Positions 24,399 to 33,599 of a DNA stretch of 44,464 nucleotides are shown in pieces. Location: UHGV virus genome UHGV-0192852; one strand, written 5' to 3'. Under the pieces are notes generated by a model. The model saw only the letters and a list, made by a program, of their open reading frames with translations. It was not told the DNA's origin and made no database searches. The first letter of the stretch is position 1, and every line of letters begins with the position of its first letter. The stretch comes from a virus. Both the position numbers and the translations under genes were made by a program.

Positions 24399-24677
24399 CT
24401 ATGCGACCAATTCGGCAACCAATAAATCACAGTCGGCTATGTTGTCAATGACGCGAACATCAGCACCGCGGCGTACCATTCGATCATGTTCACGTACCTG
24501 GTGCGGCCTCGGTTTGCCGCCAGGGCGCTTCACTTCTACGAATACCACTTTGCCGTTTATGATTATAATCAGGTCGGGCGCGCCTGAGCGCCCCTCCCAT
24601 ATCACCTTACGGCAGAATCCGCCAACCGCTTTCACCAGCTTCATCAGGTGACTTTGTACCTTGCCTTCTGGTGTCAT
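24399..24677 (-). CDS. VRR-NUC domain nuclease
   Basis: GAPDLIIIINGKVVFVEVKRPGGKPRPHQ matches PD-(D/E)xK VRR-NUC core (D...E.K...Q). Confidence 0.7.
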   Translation of the reverse strand: MTPEGKVQSHLMKLVKAVGGFCRKVIWEGRSGAPDLIIIINGKVVFVEVKRPGGKPRPHQVREHDRMVRRGADVRVIDNIADCDLLVAELVA

Positions 24678-26968
24678 TATTTTCTATACCTGTACATGAT
24701 GTCGCCTTCTGCGGCAAGTGGGAAGCCTTTCGCCCAAATAGGCAGGTCGCACATCAGTGCGCAAAGCTCCTCGGTCGTGTAGTCGTCGGTGTCCGGCACT
24801 TCTGTGATCAATTCGTCGTGTACTGACAGGACTATTTCATAGCCCGCAGCTTCAACGCCAGGCATGGACCACGCGAGGATATCGCGACACAGCGCCTGTA
24901 CGATGTTTTCCGTCAGTTTGCCGCCGTAGGTATACTGGAAGCCCCACTGGCGCGTCGTCTGATTCTCGCCCTGGTATTTGATGCGGGTGCTGGTGCGCTT
25001 CTTGCCGGTGTCTTCGTCGATCTCGGTAGTGACAGACAGCGCGATGCCGGGGTAGCTCATGATGCGCCCCGACGGCAACTCAATTTTCAACCACCAACCG
25101 GCGGCGTTCGGGTCGTCGCGCTCCTCGTCGAAGGTTGGGTCGTGCTTCGCCTTCGTGCGCACAATCTTAAGCGCTTTCCTACCGTCCGGGCGAACGTTCG
25201 CGCCAGCCCAGTATGCTTTGCCCGGATTGCGGATTGCACACAACACCGCGTCCTCAAGCTCGGCCCAAAAGGCTACCGTCTTCGGGTGGGCCTCACGCCA
25301 CATACGTTTGATCGCGTCGCAGGTCAGCCAAACGTTTTTAGGCAGTATGTATGTTGGGCGCTCGTCTTTCTTGCCAGGCTTCGGAGGGCGTTTTGCTTCG
25401 TTAATGCGGGCGTACTCATATCCTCGTTTCGCCGCCGCCCAAATGTGATCCGGGAACGTGCCTTTCATCACGTCAGCCATAGTGTAAAGGTCGAGGCCCA
25501 GGTTTTTAGCGAACTGCAAGAACGCCGCGACGCCGCCACCATAGCCCAGTCCCAATTCACACGCCTTACCGATCTGGCGCAAGTCTTTGCGGTTGGCTTT
25601 AATGTAGTCCGGGTCCAGGCCGAACATCTTACCGGCAGTCTCACAATAGATATCGCGACCGGCCCTAAACACCATTAGCGCGGTTTTCTCGCCCGCGATC
25701 CAGGCAAGTCCACGCCCTTCCACGTTGGAGTAGTCCGCTACGACAAACTTCTTGCCCTTAGCCGGGATAATGCACCCGCGAACGGTCGAGGCTGTTAGCT
25801 TCGATATGTCATACGCCCAGTGCGCTGTCCCGCGTAACAGGGAGTTGATGCCGTTGGTGAGCATGTGCGACCGGACCCAAAAAGCGACGTCGCTCTCGCC
25901 TTCGCGGCGCTTAATCTTCCCTTCGTGATCGTCGCTATACTCGCCGCGTGCCAGGTTTTGGGGCTGGAAGCCTTTACCCGCCCAGCGTAGCGTGCGCTTT
26001 GCCCCTCCATACTGAAGACAACCACGGCGGCGACCATCGGCAGACAGGCCATTGACGAGCGGATTGTATTTAGTCGATGCCGTTGATGACGCCCCGAGGC
26101 GCATCTCAATCAGCGCTTTGCCCTCGTCCGGGAAGTCCGGGTCTTCAAGCAGGTCGTTAAGTGTGGATTTCTGCGCGTTGTGAATCGTGAACGCCGGGGC
26201 AATATCACGCAGAATCGGCAGGAAGTCGTTGCCGGTTAGCTTACCGCCGAACCGTTCCCATGCCTCTTCCTTCAATTCGTCCTTATGCGCCTGCACCGCC
26301 TTGATCGCGGCGTTCGCCAGGTCAACGTCTACGTTGAATCCGCGGTCATTAATCAACTGGTCGATGAGCAGGATTTCATCTTCCTTCGGCGTGTTGCCCC
26401 AGTCCGGTATGCGCCAGTAGACTTCACGCATGGCAACAATATCCAGCGCGGCATAGCGCAGGAATTTTGCCCATTCTTCAGGGTGCGTCTCGCGCGTGTA
26501 GCGGCGGATTTTGTAGGTCTTAGGGGTGGGCTTACAGAATCGTTTAATCAGCGCCTTGCCTGCCTTATCCTTCGCGTGCTCTGCGTCAACGCCCAGCACC
26601 TGGCACTGCATATCGAGGCTACCGGGCAGCGCGTGGCGAAAGGCCATAATCATGGTGTCTTCGATCTGGCTTACCGGCAGGTCAATGCCCCACTTCTCGC
26701 GAATGACCAAGCGGTCAAACAGAAGGCCGTTAGCCATCACGATTTTTGCTTTCTTGCGGGATACCTGGCGGAGCGCCTTGCGCAGTTCACGCGGCATTGT
26801 GGGGGATTCAGTGCAATCCCATGTCTGCACGCGGCCCTCGTCGATGGCGTAGGTGCAAATCATAATCTCGGTTGATGGGTGTTCTGCGTAGGCGTAAGCG
26901 CCGACTTTCTTCAGGTCCACATCGCTGAACGTCTCGGTGTCGAGAAACAGGCGTTCGAAGTCTTTCAT
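24677..26968 (-). CDS. family A DNA polymerase with 3'-5' exonuclease domain
   Basis: N-terminal LDTETFS Exo I motif; R-x-GK...GLGYGGG (motif B-like) and VHDELITEV (motif C); 763 aa. Confidence 0.85.
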   Translation of the reverse strand: MKDFERLFLDTETFSDVDLKKVGAYAYAEHPSTEIMICTYAIDEGRVQTWDCTESPTMPRELRKALRQVSRKKAKIVMANGLLFDRLVIREKWGIDLPVSQIEDTMIMAFRHALPGSLDMQCQVLGVDAEHAKDKAGKALIKRFCKPTPKTYKIRRYTRETHPEEWAKFLRYAALDIVAMREVYWRIPDWGNTPKEDEILLIDQLINDRGFNVDVDLANAAIKAVQAHKDELKEEAWERFGGKLTGNDFLPILRDIAPAFTIHNAQKSTLNDLLEDPDFPDEGKALIEMRLGASSTASTKYNPLVNGLSADGRRRGCLQYGGAKRTLRWAGKGFQPQNLARGEYSDDHEGKIKRREGESDVAFWVRSHMLTNGINSLLRGTAHWAYDISKLTASTVRGCIIPAKGKKFVVADYSNVEGRGLAWIAGEKTALMVFRAGRDIYCETAGKMFGLDPDYIKANRKDLRQIGKACELGLGYGGGVAAFLQFAKNLGLDLYTMADVMKGTFPDHIWAAAKRGYEYARINEAKRPPKPGKKDERPTYILPKNVWLTCDAIKRMWREAHPKTVAFWAELEDAVLCAIRNPGKAYWAGANVRPDGRKALKIVRTKAKHDPTFDEERDDPNAAGWWLKIELPSGRIMSYPGIALSVTTEIDEDTGKKRTSTRIKYQGENQTTRQWGFQYTYGGKLTENIVQALCRDILAWSMPGVEAAGYEIVLSVHDELITEVPDTDDYTTEELCALMCDLPIWAKGFPLAAEGDIMYRYRK

Positions 26969-27135
26969 TGCTTTATCCTCACTACGGCGTCAGCGCTGCC
27001 GATCATGGAGAAGATGCCGTCGGACAGGGTGATTTCTTCGCCGTTGTTGCGAACCTCGGCAACTGTGAAATATTCCCCCAGTAGCTTAGACCATACTTTC
27101 ATTCCGACTTTTACTTCGCTGGCTTTAATCCGCAT
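26965..27135 (-). CDS. small hypothetical protein (56 aa) translationally coupled to DNA polymerase
   Basis: MRIKASEVKVGMKVW...; stop TGA overlaps polymerase ATG (ATGA); below track cutoff. Confidence 0.4.
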   Translation of the reverse strand: MRIKASEVKVGMKVWSKLLGEYFTVAEVRNNGEEITLSDGIFSMIGSADAVVRIKQ

Positions 27136-27152
27136 TTTTCATTGTCCTATTA

Positions 27153-27176
27153 AAAAGCCCGCATTAAGCGGGCTTG
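27153..27176 (-). terminator. rho-independent terminator after SSB gene (minus strand)
   Basis: minus strand GCCCGC-TTAAT-GCGGGC hairpin followed by TTTTT. Confidence 0.65.
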
Positions 27177-27193
27177 AATAGTGGGCTTTGCCC

Positions 27194-27946
27194 TTAACGG
27201 CGGCGACGTTTACGTGGTGCTTCGTCATCGCGTGGCTTACGACGTTTACGTGGTGCTTCGTCTTCGTCGTCGTCATCGCGGCGCTTGGATTTCTTGGACT
27301 TGCGCGGTTTTTCATCTCCATCATCGTCATCACGACGTTTTAACTTTTTGGATTTACGCGGTGCTTCGTCTTCGTCATCATCCAGGTCGTCGTCAGAGCA
27401 AGATGCACCGCCGCCACCACCGAAGGAATCACCATCGTCACGGAAGCGCATACCAAGCAGACCACAGCCTAAGCCTTTGCCGTTGGTATTGTTCCAGGCC
27501 CAAATATCTAATGAAACGTTGCAATAGCAACCGGAATATATTTCCTTCCCTTCGATTTCGTCGCCGTCGATGGTCAGACCCTGCTCCGTCTGCTTCTCGC
27601 CTTCGGAAGTCTGGATGATAGGCTGTTTGAATGATTTGGCATTGATGTACAGCTTTCCTTCAAACTCTTCCGTCACTTCTTCACGCTCGTCACCATCACG
27701 AACTGCACATTCTTTCGAATCCTGTGCGTAGTGGCGGTCCATCCACTTATCGGCGTTCTTTTCAGACTTCAGCTTTTCGGTGAGCACTGCGCGTGCCGCC
27801 GCTTCCACTTTGTCCACCTGCGGATCTTCTTTATCAAGAATAATCACCGCACGATATGCCGGTTTTTGTCCATCCTTTTTTGGGGTATCACGCTCCCAAA
27901 TGTTAAGGAAACATACGCGCACATTTTTCAGGTTGACCTTAGCCAT
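27194..27946 (-). CDS. single-strand DNA-binding protein-like (phage gp2.5/DUF2815-like) with repetitive acidic/basic C-terminal tail
   Basis: GAGGA RBS before ATG 27946 (MAKVNLKNVRVCFLNIWE); C-terminus has three [PRK(S/R)KK-KRR][DDDD-DE] blocks encoded by tandem DNA repeats; family assignment is from memory. Confidence 0.5.
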   Translation of the reverse strand: MAKVNLKNVRVCFLNIWERDTPKKDGQKPAYRAVIILDKEDPQVDKVEAAARAVLTEKLKSEKNADKWMDRHYAQDSKECAVRDGDEREEVTEEFEGKLYINAKSFKQPIIQTSEGEKQTEQGLTIDGDEIEGKEIYSGCYCNVSLDIWAWNNTNGKGLGCGLLGMRFRDDGDSFGGGGGASCSDDDLDDDEDEAPRKSKKLKRRDDDDGDEKPRKSKKSKRRDDDDEDEAPRKRRKPRDDEAPRKRRRR

Positions 27947-28003
27947 TTTCCAATTCCTCATTTTCACATGTATCGGGGTTATTGTGAGCCACCCCGTTCG
28001 GCT

Positions 28004-28026
28004 TGGTTGCTAATTTACTTGGTTGC
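28004..28026. promoter_or_regulatory. paired TTGGTTGC motifs upstream of SSB gene
   Basis: TTGGTTGC at 28004..28011 and 28019..28026 in intergenic region 27947..28036. Confidence 0.45.
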
Positions 28027-28036
28027 GCCTAAGCGG

Positions 28037-28279
28037 TCAAGCACTTTCATTAAAAAGATTTCTGGTAACGTAGTTGGTGGCGTTCTCGATCCAGCTTAAC
28101 GGCGGTCGGTCGCCATGTCTCGCGATCCACTCCACGGCGATGGTGCTGTAACCATCATCCAGCCAGCGGGTCGGATGGCGAATCATCCAGGCCACCATTA
28201 ACACGCCTTGCACGCAATGCAGGATAAAACCCAGCGCGCCGAGCAAAAACATCAATAAGATTGCAAATACTTTATTCAT
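28037..28279 (-). CDS. small membrane protein
   Basis: 80-aa ORF with N-terminal hydrophobic segments (VFAILLMFLLGALGFIL). Confidence 0.5.
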   Translation of the reverse strand: MNKVFAILLMFLLGALGFILHCVQGVLMVAWMIRHPTRWLDDGYSTIAVEWIARHGDRPPLSWIENATNYVTRNLFNESA

Positions 28280-29702
28280 TGCTTAAGTCCTCGTCAGTAG
28301 CTTCGGACCACGCAGGGCGCTGGTCGTCGATTGGGGCTAATACCGGTTTAGCCGGTGCGCGTGTGATTTTATCACACAACTTCGCCCATACTTTCGGCTT
28401 CTCGTCCTTCAATACCTTCTCGGCGTCGGTAGGACTGAGTAATGTTTCTTTGTACATCACATCGCGCTTGATCCGGGCCTTCGTGAAGATTTCAATCACT
28501 TCGCTCTCGTCGGCCCATTTGCGAACACCAGCTTTACCGGCAACCATCTTGAGGCCCAGCGATTCACCATCTCCCGCCATTACGGCCTTGAACACTGCGG
28601 ACTCGATAGCCTTGATGTGCTGGCGCATTGCGTCTAGACCTTCGTATGCCTTACGCAGTTCTTCCGTGGTCATCGCCCCTGGCGCTTCTTCCTTCTTGCC
28701 CCGCTTCGCACGTCGTGCCGCTTTCCGGGCTTCGCTGGCCATATTGCGGTCGTGGTTGGCGCATTCTTCCTCTGTCGCCACGCTCACGTCGTCGCCCAGG
28801 TCTTCGTCTGTTGCCGTTGGTGGGGTCATCGTGTCAATTGCGGCCTTAGCGCGGGCACTACACTGACCCGCAAATCGGCACCACTGGCACGCGTCAACGC
28901 TCGGGCGGAAGTCGGCACGGGTAAGCCCCTTCTTTCCTCGGGTGTACGCTTCCAGGGCGGCAATAGCGCGCTTGGATGCAAACTTCGAGAATATTTCCAG
29001 CGCTTCCACTGAAATATCCCACTCTGACGCCCCGCCGCAATACGGTTGGAAGATAACCAGGCGAACGGTCGTAATGTCGTACATAGTTTGCAGCTTGCGA
29101 AGCAGGCCCAGCGCATACAACATAAGCTGTTTGTTTTCTTTCGCCTCGACCTTATGTCGCCCGGTCTTCAGGTCGCCAACGATAAGCATGTATGTACCGT
29201 CGGTCTTCTTCATGACCATGACCATATCGGCAGTACCGAACGTCTTCACCTTGTTGCCGTCCATCTCAAAGCCAGGATGCAAGACTCGGGTCAGATCGGC
29301 GCGCATCTCAAGCTGGACAAACTCCGCCACTTCGAGGAGCGGTCGCCAGTGGTCGATGTACGCGTCGCACTGTTTCACCATGTCGTCATTGACCAGTACG
29401 CCGCCTTTCGGCGCTTTCGGGTGTGCCTTTACTGGCCCCTTTCCTTCGTTCTCGACGTAGCACCCTTTATACGTCTTCGCGGTTATTTTCTTCTCACCGG
29501 CGATAATGCGGTTTAGCACCACTTCAGATACGGTGTGCATACTCGTACCGTTAATCGCGGCTTGCCCGGATTCGTTCGGGATATCTTTTTCGACCACCAG
29601 GGCGGCGGGGCACCCCATCCATTTTTTAGATCCCGATGGCCCGAGTAATGAGTGTTCTGTATTGCTACCTGATTGTGTTTTGCGCTTTGGTTTAATAGCC
29701 AT
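28272..29702 (-). CDS. PD-(D/E)xK nuclease with Cas4-like Cys cluster (DUF2800-like recombination exonuclease)
   Basis: GDLKTGRHKVEAKENKQLMLYALG nuclease core and C-terminal CQWCRFAGQC Cys cluster; 476 aa. Confidence 0.6.
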   Translation of the reverse strand: MAIKPKRKTQSGSNTEHSLLGPSGSKKWMGCPAALVVEKDIPNESGQAAINGTSMHTVSEVVLNRIIAGEKKITAKTYKGCYVENEGKGPVKAHPKAPKGGVLVNDDMVKQCDAYIDHWRPLLEVAEFVQLEMRADLTRVLHPGFEMDGNKVKTFGTADMVMVMKKTDGTYMLIVGDLKTGRHKVEAKENKQLMLYALGLLRKLQTMYDITTVRLVIFQPYCGGASEWDISVEALEIFSKFASKRAIAALEAYTRGKKGLTRADFRPSVDACQWCRFAGQCSARAKAAIDTMTPPTATDEDLGDDVSVATEEECANHDRNMASEARKAARRAKRGKKEEAPGAMTTEELRKAYEGLDAMRQHIKAIESAVFKAVMAGDGESLGLKMVAGKAGVRKWADESEVIEIFTKARIKRDVMYKETLLSPTDAEKVLKDEKPKVWAKLCDKITRAPAKPVLAPIDDQRPAWSEATDEDLSNE

Positions 29703-31334: not shown

Positions 31335-33599
31335 ATGAGCTTAATTAAATTCGCTGTAACACGACCCGCTAAAAAAGGCGAAAAAGCCAGGGCGGAAAAC
31401 TTCCAGATGACCACTGATGAATTTTTCGAATTTATCAAAGATGCGAAAGAGATATCGTCGGTGCATATCAATAAGACGGAAGATAAAGCCGAGTATGCAC
31501 GCCGCAAGCGTAAGGCCGATGGCATTGTGGCGTATACCAGTGACGGCTTACGTCGCAAGACCAGTGCGGTGGACCGCTCGATCCTGTTCTTCGATATTGA
31601 CCGTACTGACACCCGCACCCTACGCCGCTGCCGTAAGGCGTTCATCGACGCGGGACTGGAGCACGTCTTCCACACCACAACCGGCGACCGCCACCCGCTG
31701 AAAGGAGGCACGCGTTGCGCCCGTTTCCTGGTGTTAACTGACAAGCCTGTACCGGCGGAAGACCTGGGCCGCGCCCAGTATGCCTTGTTAGCCCAACTTG
31801 GTCTGTCCGATGTGGACTTCGATGATTGCACGAAAGACACAAACCGCCTTATGTACCTGCCCCACCAGCAATCGGTTATTAAGTGCCACTACGGCAAACG
31901 TGCCCGCATCCGTCGTCTGCTTCGCCTGGCTGATAAGCTGGGAGTGGAAAAAGAGGAAGTACGCCGCGAACTAACCCAGGGCGATGACGGCGTGGCGGAC
32001 GGCATTCTGGATTGGTGCTTCCAGGCAGGATTCGAACCGCTGTCGTCCGGTCGTGGTTATGAAGTGCCATGCCCGAACGAACATCTGCATAGTGGAGAAG
32101 GGTCCACCGCAATCATGGTTAAGGATGGCGAGATCCGTTTCAAGTGTATGCACACCGGCAACGAGTGTTGCTCGGAACTGAATAGACACCAGCACCTAGC
32201 GCTACGTCTTATCGGTATCCCTGACCACCTGAACGTCGAACCGCACAACATGTCACGTAAGCAGATCGCCGCCATCCTTCCGGGGCTTGACGACGAGGAG
32301 GTGGAATCGTGCTACGAACATATTGTTGATGCGGTTGGTGACGGCTACGAGTACGGCGAATGTACGGATGCAGACCTGGACAACGAGCCGGTCGCACTGT
32401 TCAGTAAGCACGACCCGATCATCGAAGGCCTGGTTAACTTTAAATCGACATGGTATCTCGCCGGTGAGTCGAACATCGGTAAGTCATTCTACGTGCTGGG
32501 CCAGATGGGCGCTGTTGCCGCGGGTATTCCTTTTGGCGGTGCGAAGGTCGTACAGTCTCATTGCTTCTATTTCGACGCGGAAGGTGGCGAAGCCTCCAAC
32601 CAGCGTAAGGAAGCATTGCAGATCAAATATGAGCACGACCTGGACAAGCTGCACATTATAGACCTGCAATCTCGCGGCTGGGATATCACCAGCAAATCAG
32701 GACTGCGTGAAGTTATCAGCTTCATCAACCGCACCGCTAACGGAGAACCGGTTGGCCTGGTGGCGTTCGACTCACTCAACCAGACTGTTGCGTTGCGGTC
32801 CGCCGATGCTAAACCGTTCGACGAGAACAACGCCAGCGATATGGGCGAAGTGGTCAAAGCGCTGAAGGCCATCGCGGAAAATACAGGCGGCAGCGCTGGC
32901 GTCATCCACCACCCGGCGAAAGGTGCAAACGGCAGCAGAACGCCACGCGGATCCGGCGCGCTTCATGGTGCTGTCGATTCCGCGTTCTTCCTGGAACAGC
33001 CGGACGACAACCAGCCAGGCCAACTCAACCTGTACCATGAGAAGTCACGTAACGGCATCAAGCAAGCGCCGCGTGGCTTCGTTCTGCTCAAGTGCAAAGT
33101 GAAGGTGGATCTACGCAAGTCCGAGGCGTTCGAAGCCCACCAGTCCACCAGCACCGGGCCAGACTTCGGTGATGTGGTTGCCGGTTGGGACGTCAAGCCG
33201 ATTGCATCCACGCCACGCGACGAGACTCTCTACCTCGTACCGGTCGCCCTGGCACCGTTCGCTATCGAACAGGCGAAGGCCGCGGGCAAAGCGGCAGTTA
33301 AGGAAGAGAACACCGCCGGACCGCGCACAGAAAAAGAGAAGGTGCTTTATGCGGCACTGGAAAAACTGATGGAAGATAACCCGGACCATACCGGATTCAG
33401 TAAGTCGGCAATTGTCCGCCAGGCCGGACTCGCGAAAGGTGGCACATCTACGAAGGCGATTGACGATATGGTTGAGCGCGGAGTGTTAGGTTTCTACACC
33501 GACCCGCACACCGGGGCCATCTATGGGTCGTCAAATATCGTCATCAAAACGAATATACCCATCACGCTTTCGGCGACCGACGACGACTTAAGAGATTAA
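31335..33599 (+). CDS. putative DNA primase / replicative helicase-ATPase fusion
   Basis: C-terminal RecA-like P-loop (AGESNIGKSF Walker A, VAFDSL Walker B-like); central Cys/His cluster (CPNEHLH...CMHTGNECC); 754 aa. Confidence 0.55.
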   Translation: MSLIKFAVTRPAKKGEKARAENFQMTTDEFFEFIKDAKEISSVHINKTEDKAEYARRKRKADGIVAYTSDGLRRKTSAVDRSILFFDIDRTDTRTLRRCRKAFIDAGLEHVFHTTTGDRHPLKGGTRCARFLVLTDKPVPAEDLGRAQYALLAQLGLSDVDFDDCTKDTNRLMYLPHQQSVIKCHYGKRARIRRLLRLADKLGVEKEEVRRELTQGDDGVADGILDWCFQAGFEPLSSGRGYEVPCPNEHLHSGEGSTAIMVKDGEIRFKCMHTGNECCSELNRHQHLALRLIGIPDHLNVEPHNMSRKQIAAILPGLDDEEVESCYEHIVDAVGDGYEYGECTDADLDNEPVALFSKHDPIIEGLVNFKSTWYLAGESNIGKSFYVLGQMGAVAAGIPFGGAKVVQSHCFYFDAEGGEASNQRKEALQIKYEHDLDKLHIIDLQSRGWDITSKSGLREVISFINRTANGEPVGLVAFDSLNQTVALRSADAKPFDENNASDMGEVVKALKAIAENTGGSAGVIHHPAKGANGSRTPRGSGALHGAVDSAFFLEQPDDNQPGQLNLYHEKSRNGIKQAPRGFVLLKCKVKVDLRKSEAFEAHQSTSTGPDFGDVVAGWDVKPIASTPRDETLYLVPVALAPFAIEQAKAAGKAAVKEENTAGPRTEKEKVLYAALEKLMEDNPDHTGFSKSAIVRQAGLAKGGTSTKAIDDMVERGVLGFYTDPHTGAIYGSSNIVIKTNIPITLSATDDDLRD

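Follow-up and report, generated by a model that had tools for sequence, protein, structure and literature searches.

A charge-alternating tail and a shared acidic motif in the ssDNA-binding protein of phage genome UHGV-0192852

The gene and the fold of its product

Virus genome UHGV-0192852 was analyzed as one stretch of 44,464 nucleotides (the window). The gene considered here lies on the minus strand at 27194..27946 and is assigned to an SSB (single-stranded DNA-binding) and annealing protein with an alternating acidic/basic C-terminal tail. By direct reading, the open reading frame (ORF) is intact, with 250 codons plus TAA, running from an ATG at 27946 to a stop codon at 27194-27196; the ORF list, PF10991, PHROG 112, and the orthologues in phage Bas83, which are annotated likewise, all agree with the assignment. 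A Shine-Dalgarno sequence, GAGGA (27955..27959, minus strand), can be read 8 nt 5' of this ATG and makes ATG 27946 the preferred start over an upstream GTG at 27967. The protein is divided into four parts, all on the minus strand. The OB-fold core comprises residues 1-175 (27422..27946) and was delimited by model confidence, Foldseek, and profile comparison with PDB. It is followed by a glycine hinge, GGGGGASC (residues 176-183; 27398..27421), recognized from homologue conservation, low model confidence, and the translation. Next comes an acidic motif, SDDDLDDDEDE (residues 184-194; 27365..27397), defined by its conservation and by copies in the helicase-primase and nuclease. The last part is a charge-alternating extension (residues 195-250; 27197..27364), defined by its translation, charge pattern, predicted disorder, repeats, and unit-sized indels.

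The core belongs to a known family of phage proteins. Residues 3-193 align with positions 2-173 of the 176-position profile PF10991 (Enc34_ssDNA-bd, formerly DUF2815), scoring 111.2 bits (cut-off 26; E 6e-32), and the protein also matches PHROG 112, the Gp2.5-like single-stranded DNA (ssDNA) binding and annealing protein. PF10991 is present in all 120 of the 120 listed homologues. Sequence-based matches to solved structures were 4KLK, 4JG2, and 5ODJ (profile against PDB, E 6e-18 for 5ODJ). An AlphaFold2 (AF2) model built on 77 homologues has a predicted local distance difference test score (pLDDT) of 88-97 over residues 1-170, with strands at 2-20 and 30-38 followed by helices at 43-59 and 62-72 (pLDDT >90), so that a long helix follows beta2. 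The hallmark of T7-type SSBs is an OB barrel to which further N-terminal strands are added and which is capped by a long helix after beta2 (PMC5686142), and the AF2 model and its Foldseek matches have the barrel and the capping helix in this arrangement. In PDB, Foldseek matched 4KLK (4.9e-12), 5ODL, which is the Enc34 SSB with ssDNA (4.3e-11), 4JG2 (8e-10), and 1JE5, which is T7 gp2.5 (1.2e-6), as well as 5ODJ; beyond the 4KLK, Enc34, 4JG2, and gp2.5 structures, nothing was found there at E <0.3.

In the Enc34 protein, Trp150, Tyr156, and Tyr37 are the aromatic residues that stack on ssDNA bases. In the profile hidden Markov model alignment, W149 of the window SSB stands opposite the tryptophan of the Enc34 RPW sequence, which is Trp150 by its spacing to NKY. 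Tyr156 is replaced by Asn, W151 lies two residues from W149, and loop residue Tyr37 has no reliable alignment. A preliminary description of this locus, made from the letters alone, had proposed an SSB-like N-terminal domain, and the proposal holds: about 175 residues are of Enc34/T7 gp2.5 type by PF10991, PHROG 112, AF2, Foldseek, and the profile comparison with PDB. The product of 27194..27946 is almost certainly an SSB of this type, and a role in phage replication and recombination is the best explanation for it.

The tail and its variation among relatives

Canonical SSB tails are short, acidic throughout, and net negative, and a hydrophobic or aromatic residue stands at or beside their end (gp2.5 ...GDF, E. 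coli ...IPF). The tail of the window SSB reads GGGGGASC, SDDDLDDDEDE, APRKSKKLKRR, DDDDGDE, KPRKSKKSKRR, DDDDEDE, APRKRRKPR, DDE, APRKRRRR. Only the first 11 charged-motif residues (SDDDLDDDEDE) are of canonical character, and the protein ends ...APRKRRRR. The preliminary description had counted three acidic/basic alternations over 90 residues. Alternation is real, but the charged tail covers residues 185-250, or 66 residues (75 with the Gly hinge), and contains four acidic/basic pairs. It holds 27 K/R and 25 D/E (net +2, 79% charged), and its only hydrophobic residues are L188, in the proximal motif, and L201. Charges are strongly segregated (kappa ~0.5), and none of 5000 composition-preserving shuffles reached the observed blockiness. 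Residues 175-250 are predicted by AF2 to be disordered (pLDDT 48-65, and <50 at 178-182) without secondary structure. The tail therefore combines the properties of a polyampholyte, which are predicted disorder, a high fraction of charged residues, a near-neutral net charge, and segregated charges.

An exhaustive core-only search returned 2220 cluster representatives at E <=1e-3, and tails were inspected in the best 150. These proteins are mostly 170-205 aa long with a tail of ~24 residues (median 1 K/R and 8 D/E, net -7), and the last residue is A, F, L, V, or I in most of the 89 representatives with plain tails. Acidic/basic alternation occurs in about one-tenth of the best 150 (~15 by eye); a scripted plain:extended count of 89:9 is rough, as its core-end regular expression failed on 51 of 149 representatives. 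With about 90% of these 150 diverse representatives having a short acidic tail and a hydrophobic end, the earlier remark that the tail is atypical for an SSB was correct. Within the SSB's own subfamily, all 115 homologues, down to 31% identity, have basic blocks; 10, 36, 56, 9, 2, 1, and 1 of these proteins have 1, 2, 3, 4, 5, 6, and 9 blocks, respectively. The comparison of tail length among homologues that had been suggested as a check thus gives 1-9 basic blocks in the SSB's own clade against plain acidic tails elsewhere. Proline stands just before the first K/R in 217 of the 274 basic blocks of the 115 homologues. Half of the tails (57) have a basic end (...PRRRRR), 28 have a Tyr-containing acidic end (...RRNYEDDEE), 16 have an acidic end, and 14 have other ends.

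Alternating tails also occur in cultured phages of other genera, including eiAU, Scapp (with K/R blocks like those of the window SSB), LSPA1 of Jerseyvirus, which has only one block, and a Loktanella phage. Basic-block composition varies by lineage while the pattern persists, suggesting selection on charge pattern and possibly several origins. Judged from these homologues, alternation in the tail is conserved across a large clade, which includes many metagenomic relatives, and is not peculiar to UHGV-0192852. Full-text literature searches returned no description of alternating acidic/basic SSB tails, an absence that is no proof of novelty; the tail architecture appears to be undescribed, while the SSB family is known and is annotated in relatives.

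Some relatives have long tails of other kinds. In the Loktanella phage pCB2051-A (L026, 9128-10156), the family member is 342 aa long; its tail carries about ten RG-rich/acidic units (…DEDEPRGRGRGRGRDEE…) yet keeps a hydrophobic tip (…GRDDDIA). P0118-P0120, P0218, and P0231, which are metagenomic relatives, resemble this type, and in all of these proteins the repeats appear to be inserted between the proximal motif and a canonical tip. Marinobacter phage PS6 (L029, 8971-9651) has a long, purely acidic tail with several hydrophobic-containing copies (DEFDDL, DDDDL, DELDDL, DELDD), which is a different route to multivalency.

At the nucleotide level, 155 GenBank phage records match the SSB region at 80-95% identity, and nearly all are Escherichia siphophages of Dhillonvirus type. 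The SSB core, which has ~1100 homologues among GenBank phages, is 98.8% identical in protein sequence to that of phage Ioannina. For the region 27100-28100, the best GenBank phage nucleotide matches are at ~89-90% (Envy, Sloth, Gluttony). From these identities, the window looks like a genome of Dhillonvirus type that is new and not a resequenced isolate.

DNA repeats had previously been placed at 27200..27360. They do exist, but Tandem Repeats Finder (TRF) locates them at 27245-27379 (period 54, 2.5 copies, 71% matches), and a repeat search found four in-register 30-nt copies at 27209-27382. On the minus strand, the extension is made up of units U1 (27308-27361), U2 (27254-27307), U3 (27218-27253), and U4 (27197-27217). 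U1 and U2 have 15 of 18 amino acids alike but only 5 of 18 codons identical, with 10 synonymous differences, which indicates old, diverged copies with kept amino acids and not fresh slippage or an assembly artefact. At the U3/U4 junction, 23 nt are identical, suggesting a recent event.

Constraint on the tail was estimated from a codon alignment of 17 Dhillonvirus SSBs, with the ratio of nonsynonymous to synonymous substitution rates (dN/dS) taken from 133 pairs. Median dN/dS is 0.05 in the core and 0.09 at aligned tail positions (tail dS ~0.5); the low-complexity alignment biases the tail value downward, yet it is far from neutral. In the same alignment, the number of basic blocks varies between 2, 3, and 4 within the genus, as clean gaps of unit size. 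Unit 2 is missing in relatives L002, L004, and L014, units 2 and 3 are missing in L005, and a deletion in L010 joins units 2 and 3. In the window tail, the last acidic block is short by ~10 codons, which explains the tail's net charge of +2. In phage vB_EcoS-22664B1 (L027, MZ234008.1, ~1195-1302), one acidic/basic unit has been duplicated in tandem as an exact 54-nt copy (DDEDEAPRKAKKSKRR twice), which is direct evidence of recent unit gain. The preliminary suggestion of a repeat-expansion hotspot is borne out as far as turnover of whole units goes (2, 3, or 4 basic blocks among close relatives and the exact duplication), but the tail is constrained and not drifting freely. The median net charge of the tails of the 115 homologues is -9 (interquartile range -10 to -7), and charge depends little on length, the slope being only -0.04 per residue or -0.5 per block. 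Because the units (~18 aa each) are near-neutral, length and valency can change while tail charge stays approximately that of a plain acidic tail. Overall, the tail is probably a constrained, functional polyampholyte that varies in its number of units.

Core and tail differ sharply in synonymous divergence in some pairs. Between the window SSB and L012, core dS is 0.15 and tail dS is 0.65, and for L004 and L005 a core value of 0.42 stands against 0.7-0.9 for the tail. Such a contrast suggests recombination breakpoints near the hinge and partly separate histories of core and tail.

The GenBank records of two cultured isolates show frameshifts in this region. Ioannina (L030, OQ589852.1, ~1230-1240) has a 1-nt deletion in its GGTGGCGGC Gly hinge, and 22664B1 (MZ234008.1, ~1180-1190) has a 2-nt insertion after DDDLGD. 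Their annotated SSBs are frameshifted products of 285 aa and 269 aa, respectively, with an MTKMKHR... tail. The normal-frame tail is intact downstream in both, and (very recent) mutation is therefore no likelier an explanation than sequencing error. Protein P0010 from a Logan assembly shares the alternative-frame tail, as seen at the protein level. Long open frames overlap the SSB tail in other registers at 27139-27333 (minus strand) and 27181-27618 (plus strand); they are open because the GAY/AAR/CGN codon composition yields no stops there, and there is no evidence that they are genes. Programmed frameshifting into ORF 27139..27333 (P0006, P0010, and the Ioannina annotation) was considered and rejected, given that this frame is open by codon composition and that the indels of Ioannina and 22664B1 differ and leave the normal-frame tail intact.

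A shared acidic motif and the replication module

Judging by its conservation, the first acidic block of the tail is a separate motif and not simply one of the repeats. Near-invariant positions in 77 homologues are G177 and G178 in the hinge and D187, L188, and D190 in the motif. L188 is the only hydrophobic residue of the tail that is conserved, and 80 of 115 homologues have DDDL. The pattern [ST]D[DE]DL occurs four times in the 51 proteins of the window (13,443 residues) versus 0.06 times expected by shuffling. All four sites are in replication proteins (SSB tail, helicase-primase end, nuclease end, and nuclease interior). Acidic blocks of the extension were also considered as extra copies of the motif, and this was rejected for want of an L/F residue in them.

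The replicative helicase-primase gene (AAA_25; 31335..33599, on the plus strand like its motif copy) encodes SATDDDLRD as the last nine residues (33570..33596, plus strand), and the motif is kept C-terminally in L017, L018, L019, L021, LSPA1, eiAU, Scapp, and PS6. The gene for a DUF2800 nuclease of the PD-(D/E)XK type (28272..29702; PDDEXK_1 by Pfam) encodes EATDEDLSNE as the last ten residues (28275..28304, minus strand), kept in L017, L018, L021, LSPA1, eiAU, Scapp, StauST398-2, and PS6. An internal nuclease copy, TATDEDLGDD (28788..28817, minus strand), is found in Bas83 too. The motif-bearing peptides of SSB, helicase-primase, and nuclease are GASCSDDDLDDDEDE, ...ITLSATDDDLRD, and ...AWSEATDEDLSNE, respectively.

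The C-terminal motif of the nuclease covaries with the SSB copy in 10 phage lineages, Gram-negative and Gram-positive, and the copies are of two types, TD[DE]DL and [DE]F[DE]xL. In L018, the SSB has NDDDL, the nuclease SDEDLS, and the helicase-primase SDEDLNS; the corresponding sequences are VDDLE, EEDLE, and EGDLE in LSPA1, and DDFDELDE, SDFENLE, and EEFEELE in Scapp. In APSE-1, the SSB has EEFDDL and the nuclease NDFDDV, the helicase-primase being outside the stretch examined. The Staphylococcus phage StauST398-2 has the identical AEDDFDEL in SSB and nuclease, with a weaker match (...ESLEDLI) in its VirE-type helicase. Marinobacter phage PS6 has DEFDDLD in both SSB and nuclease and ...FTDDDDL in the helicase-primase.

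From these alignments, the pattern looks like one docking motif carried by several proteins for a common receptor. With the motif common to all three proteins, SSB, helicase-primase, and nuclease probably compete for one receptor surface. By analogy with T7, the polymerase is a plausible candidate receptor; work of the Richardson laboratory on T7 established that gp2.5 and the gp4 helicase-primase each use an acidic tail to dock on the gp5 polymerase. The concave beta-sheet of a neighboring SSB is the other plausible candidate, again by analogy. In the crystals of gp2.5, Enc34 ORF6, and the two other DUF2815 proteins, the proximal tail occupies the concave sheet of a neighbor (PMC5686142), and the gp2.5 tail serves in dimerization and partner contacts (PMC10359462). 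The DUF2800 PD-(D/E)XK nuclease gene adjoins the SSB gene, and the nuclease C-terminus copies the proximal motif of the SSB. The covariation of the two motifs is compatible with a possible exonuclease-annealase contact.

The SSB gene is part of a conserved gene module. A family-A DNA polymerase gene (DNA_pol_A by Pfam) lies at 24677..26968, and an SNF2-type helicase gene is also nearby. All relatives inspected keep this context of nuclease, PolA, helicase-primase, and SNF2 helicase, and the order DUF2800 nuclease, SSB, PolA recurs in L017-L019, L021-L026, L028, and L029. Directly 3' of the SSB stop codon is a terminator-like hairpin, AAGCCCGC-TTAAT-GCGGGCTT followed by a T-run (27151..27175, minus strand). 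Folding of 27130-27200 on that strand gives -26.2 kcal/mol (z-score -3.4), and none of 200 shuffles was equally stable. A consensus terminator scan did not list the 27151-27175 hairpin, which was recovered by direct folding, and the WF5505 record has a terminator annotated at the equivalent place. A 56-aa ORF (26965-27135, minus strand) directly downstream of the SSB gene has no Pfam match and is SSB-adjacent in relatives too. In SECphi18 and SECphi6, its orthologue repeatedly carries a +C frameshift (E21fs) in mutants that escape defence, in rows interleaved with Borvo polymerase escapers (Table S2 of 10.1101/2022.08.27.505566).

Proposed function, alternatives, and significance

Comparison with known SSBs is helpful for judging what the tail may do. 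Enc34 ORF6 (5ODJ, 5ODK, 5ODL) shares with the window SSB the Pfam family, the fold, a Gly-containing exit of the last strand, and a proximal acidic segment. It prefers ssDNA over double-stranded DNA by gel shift, and this selectivity is lost on tail removal. Structural-alignment identity is 18-20%. The Enc34 tail has neither basic blocks nor repeats; it is short and purely acidic, with D/E at 16 of the last 29 positions, and by its cloning primer the protein ends ...WDEDEV. T7 gp2.5, also an annealing protein, has the same T7-type OB fold, a long capping helix, and a disordered C-terminal tail, and it works with a helicase-primase that itself bears an acidic C-terminal tail. Identity to gp2.5 is 12-14%; the gp2.5 tail (...DEESWDEDDEESEEADEDGDF) is acidic throughout with an essential C-terminal Phe, whereas the window tail is about half basic and ends in RRRR. 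The window SSB probably works like gp2.5 and the Enc34 protein in its core, and probably also in its proximal motif.

More distant proteins offer partial precedents for the extension. T4 gp32 has a basic disordered N-terminal B-domain for cooperativity and an acidic C-terminal A-domain for partners. This is a precedent for basic and acidic flexible modules that tune cooperativity, although the modules of gp32 are single-copy, at opposite ends, and not interleaved. The fold class of gp32 is unrelated to the T7 type (PMC5686142). E. coli SSB likewise combines an OB core, a disordered linker, and an acidic/hydrophobic motif (DDDIPF), but it belongs to another family (Foldseek E >1), its linker is Gly/Gln/Pro-rich and uncharged, and its motif is at the very C-terminus. 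E. coli SSB forms condensates, and in Caulobacter RNase E the charge blocks of the C-terminal domain drive assembly of bacterial ribonucleoprotein body (BR-body) condensates. The RNase E domain has alternating charge blocks of segregation comparable to that of the window tail, but it is a different class of protein without homology. The linker of E. coli SSB influences cooperativity, as cited in PMC10359462 (its ref 29).

The closest experimental information comes from phages SECphi4, SECphi6, and SECphi18, whose SSBs are assigned to the Gp2.5 family and trigger Retron-Eco8 when expressed (Stokar-Avihail et al., 10.1101/2022.08.27.505566). These SSBs are orthologous to the window SSB and come from the same phage group, with the same core and tail type; SECphi4 has three basic blocks and SECphi18 has four (Table S2). 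They differ from the window protein in its shortened last acidic block and net charge of +2. The published structural model of the SECphi SSB covered residues 1-186 and omitted the flexible C-terminal residues (10.1101/2022.08.27.505566). Binding of multicopy single-stranded DNA by the SECphi4 protein is reported at second hand in PMC13402713.

Our preferred explanation is an SSB with a shared motif and a bridging polyampholyte tail, and we give it, as a whole, a probability of roughly 0.45. The tail has three parts, namely the Gly hinge, the acidic-hydrophobic motif SDDDL, and clade-specific units of ~18 aa, in each of which an acidic block precedes a basic block that starts with Pro. Blocks of opposite charge, ~8-11 residues long, would attract each other within and between chains, and basic blocks would touch the DNA backbone and the acidic blocks of neighboring SSBs. 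A multivalent tail of this kind could bridge SSB-ssDNA complexes, leading to cooperative coating, strand annealing, and possibly local condensation. Two SSB-coated strands might be drawn together, which would suit an annealase paired with an exonuclease. Acidic blocks, or the net negative charge, would preserve ssDNA selectivity and autoinhibition. That the extension itself is a multivalent electrostatic bridging module is put forward tentatively, on the charge pattern and its conservation.

Several observations weigh against this explanation. About 90% of the family functions without the extension. Tails are net negative in most homologues, and basic blocks may be neutralized in-chain and never be on DNA. 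The window tail, with its net charge of +2, is an outlier, and strict charge balance is evidently inessential. The Ioannina and 22664B1 frameshifts would abolish the whole normal tail, and if they are real, the tail is dispensable for plaques. The downward bias of the tail dN/dS mentioned above also belongs here.

A more specific version is that binding to DNA gates the motif. Basic blocks would mask the motif in free SSB, and on ssDNA they would shift to the backbone and to neighboring tails and so expose it. The three proteins would then alternate on one receptor site, and the covarying motif would organize the module. Assemblies would be cooperative or condensate-like in this version and would speed annealing. 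We regard it as speculative and unlikely.

Alternatively, the extension may be a recruitment platform, in which the repeated unit or the terminal PRKRRRR binds a phage or host partner (polymerase, SNF2 helicase, or a host factor) and not DNA or SSB. SSB tails of T7 and E. coli are partner-binding elements, and some sequence is kept here beyond charge, as in the boundary [DE]-x-P-R-[KR] with its frequent Pro (217 of 274 blocks) and in the terminal PR(K/R)RRR of 57 of the 115 homologues; the low tail dN/dS agrees with this. The extension acidic blocks, however, lack the hydrophobic residue of the shared motif, and the basic blocks, K/R-rich here, are RG-rich in the Loktanella phage and S/R-rich elsewhere, which fits a need for charge better than a need for one particular motif. 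Copy number ranges from 2 to 4 in one genus with no accompanying change seen, and no partner with a complementary feature was found. We regard recruitment as unlikely.

It is also conceivable, but quite unlikely, that the extension is a charge-compensated spacer, which would determine how far the tail reaches or its entropic volume, would drift in length, and would have no binding of its own. The near-independence of net charge from length (-0.04 per residue), at a value equal to that of plain tails, would be expected of a spacer, as would the polymorphic unit number among close relatives. In P0118-P0120, P0218, P0231, and the Loktanella phage, the repeats between motif and tip (...DDDLV, ...DDDIA) do resemble an expanded linker. 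In Dhillonvirus, by contrast, the extension is terminal and nothing beyond it needs a leash. Moreover, a spacer has no need of segregated blocks and conserved Pro-Arg starts, and aligned tail positions are nearly as constrained as the core.

Neutral expansion of low-complexity sequence from slippage-prone GAY/GAR and AAR/CGN codons, tolerated by the phage, would account for the copy-number polymorphism, the recent exact duplication, and the absence of the extension from most of the family, and the frameshifted records of cultured isolates are compatible with it. It is improbable given that the pattern is kept down to 31% core identity, that tail dN/dS is 0.09 at dS ~0.5, that U1 and U2 keep 15 of 18 residues despite near-saturated synonymous change, and that net charge stays within a narrow band.

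An arms race, in which unit gain and loss lets an abundant SSB evade host defence sensors, is very improbable. The orthologous SSB does trigger Retron-Eco8, several systems sense phage SSBs, and no part of the protein varies more in length than the tail, but the published SECphi4/18 escape mutations are core T56P or upstream of the gene, with none in the tail, and selection at aligned tail sites is purifying and not diversifying. An artefact of assembly or sequencing in the window, which had been named as grounds for discarding the repeats and for which there is only the general risk that repeats carry, can be set aside in view of the synonymous-site divergence of the units, the intact frame, and the same architecture in >150 independently sequenced phage genomes.

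SSB tails control replisomes, and current ideas about them are built on the purely acidic tails of T7, T4, and E. coli. The gene described here is in itself unsurprising, being a correctly annotatable SSB; the best leads are the covarying motif and the series of unit numbers. The clade holds model phages, including BASEL phages Bas83 and Bas85, SECphi4/6/18, and the Salmonella Jerseyviruses. A natural series of 1-9 near-neutral units on one core is a test system for the effects of charge patterning and valency on cooperativity, annealing, and partner hand-off. As a trigger of Retron-Eco8, the SSB also connects tail function with phage sensing by defence systems. The covarying motif provides a testable handle on how the widespread DUF2800-DUF2815-PolA module holds together, and it may help to match exonucleases with annealases for recombineering. 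If exposure of the motif is indeed gated by DNA, the motif would be an organizing principle of the DUF2800-DUF2815-PolA module in Gram-negative and Gram-positive phages.

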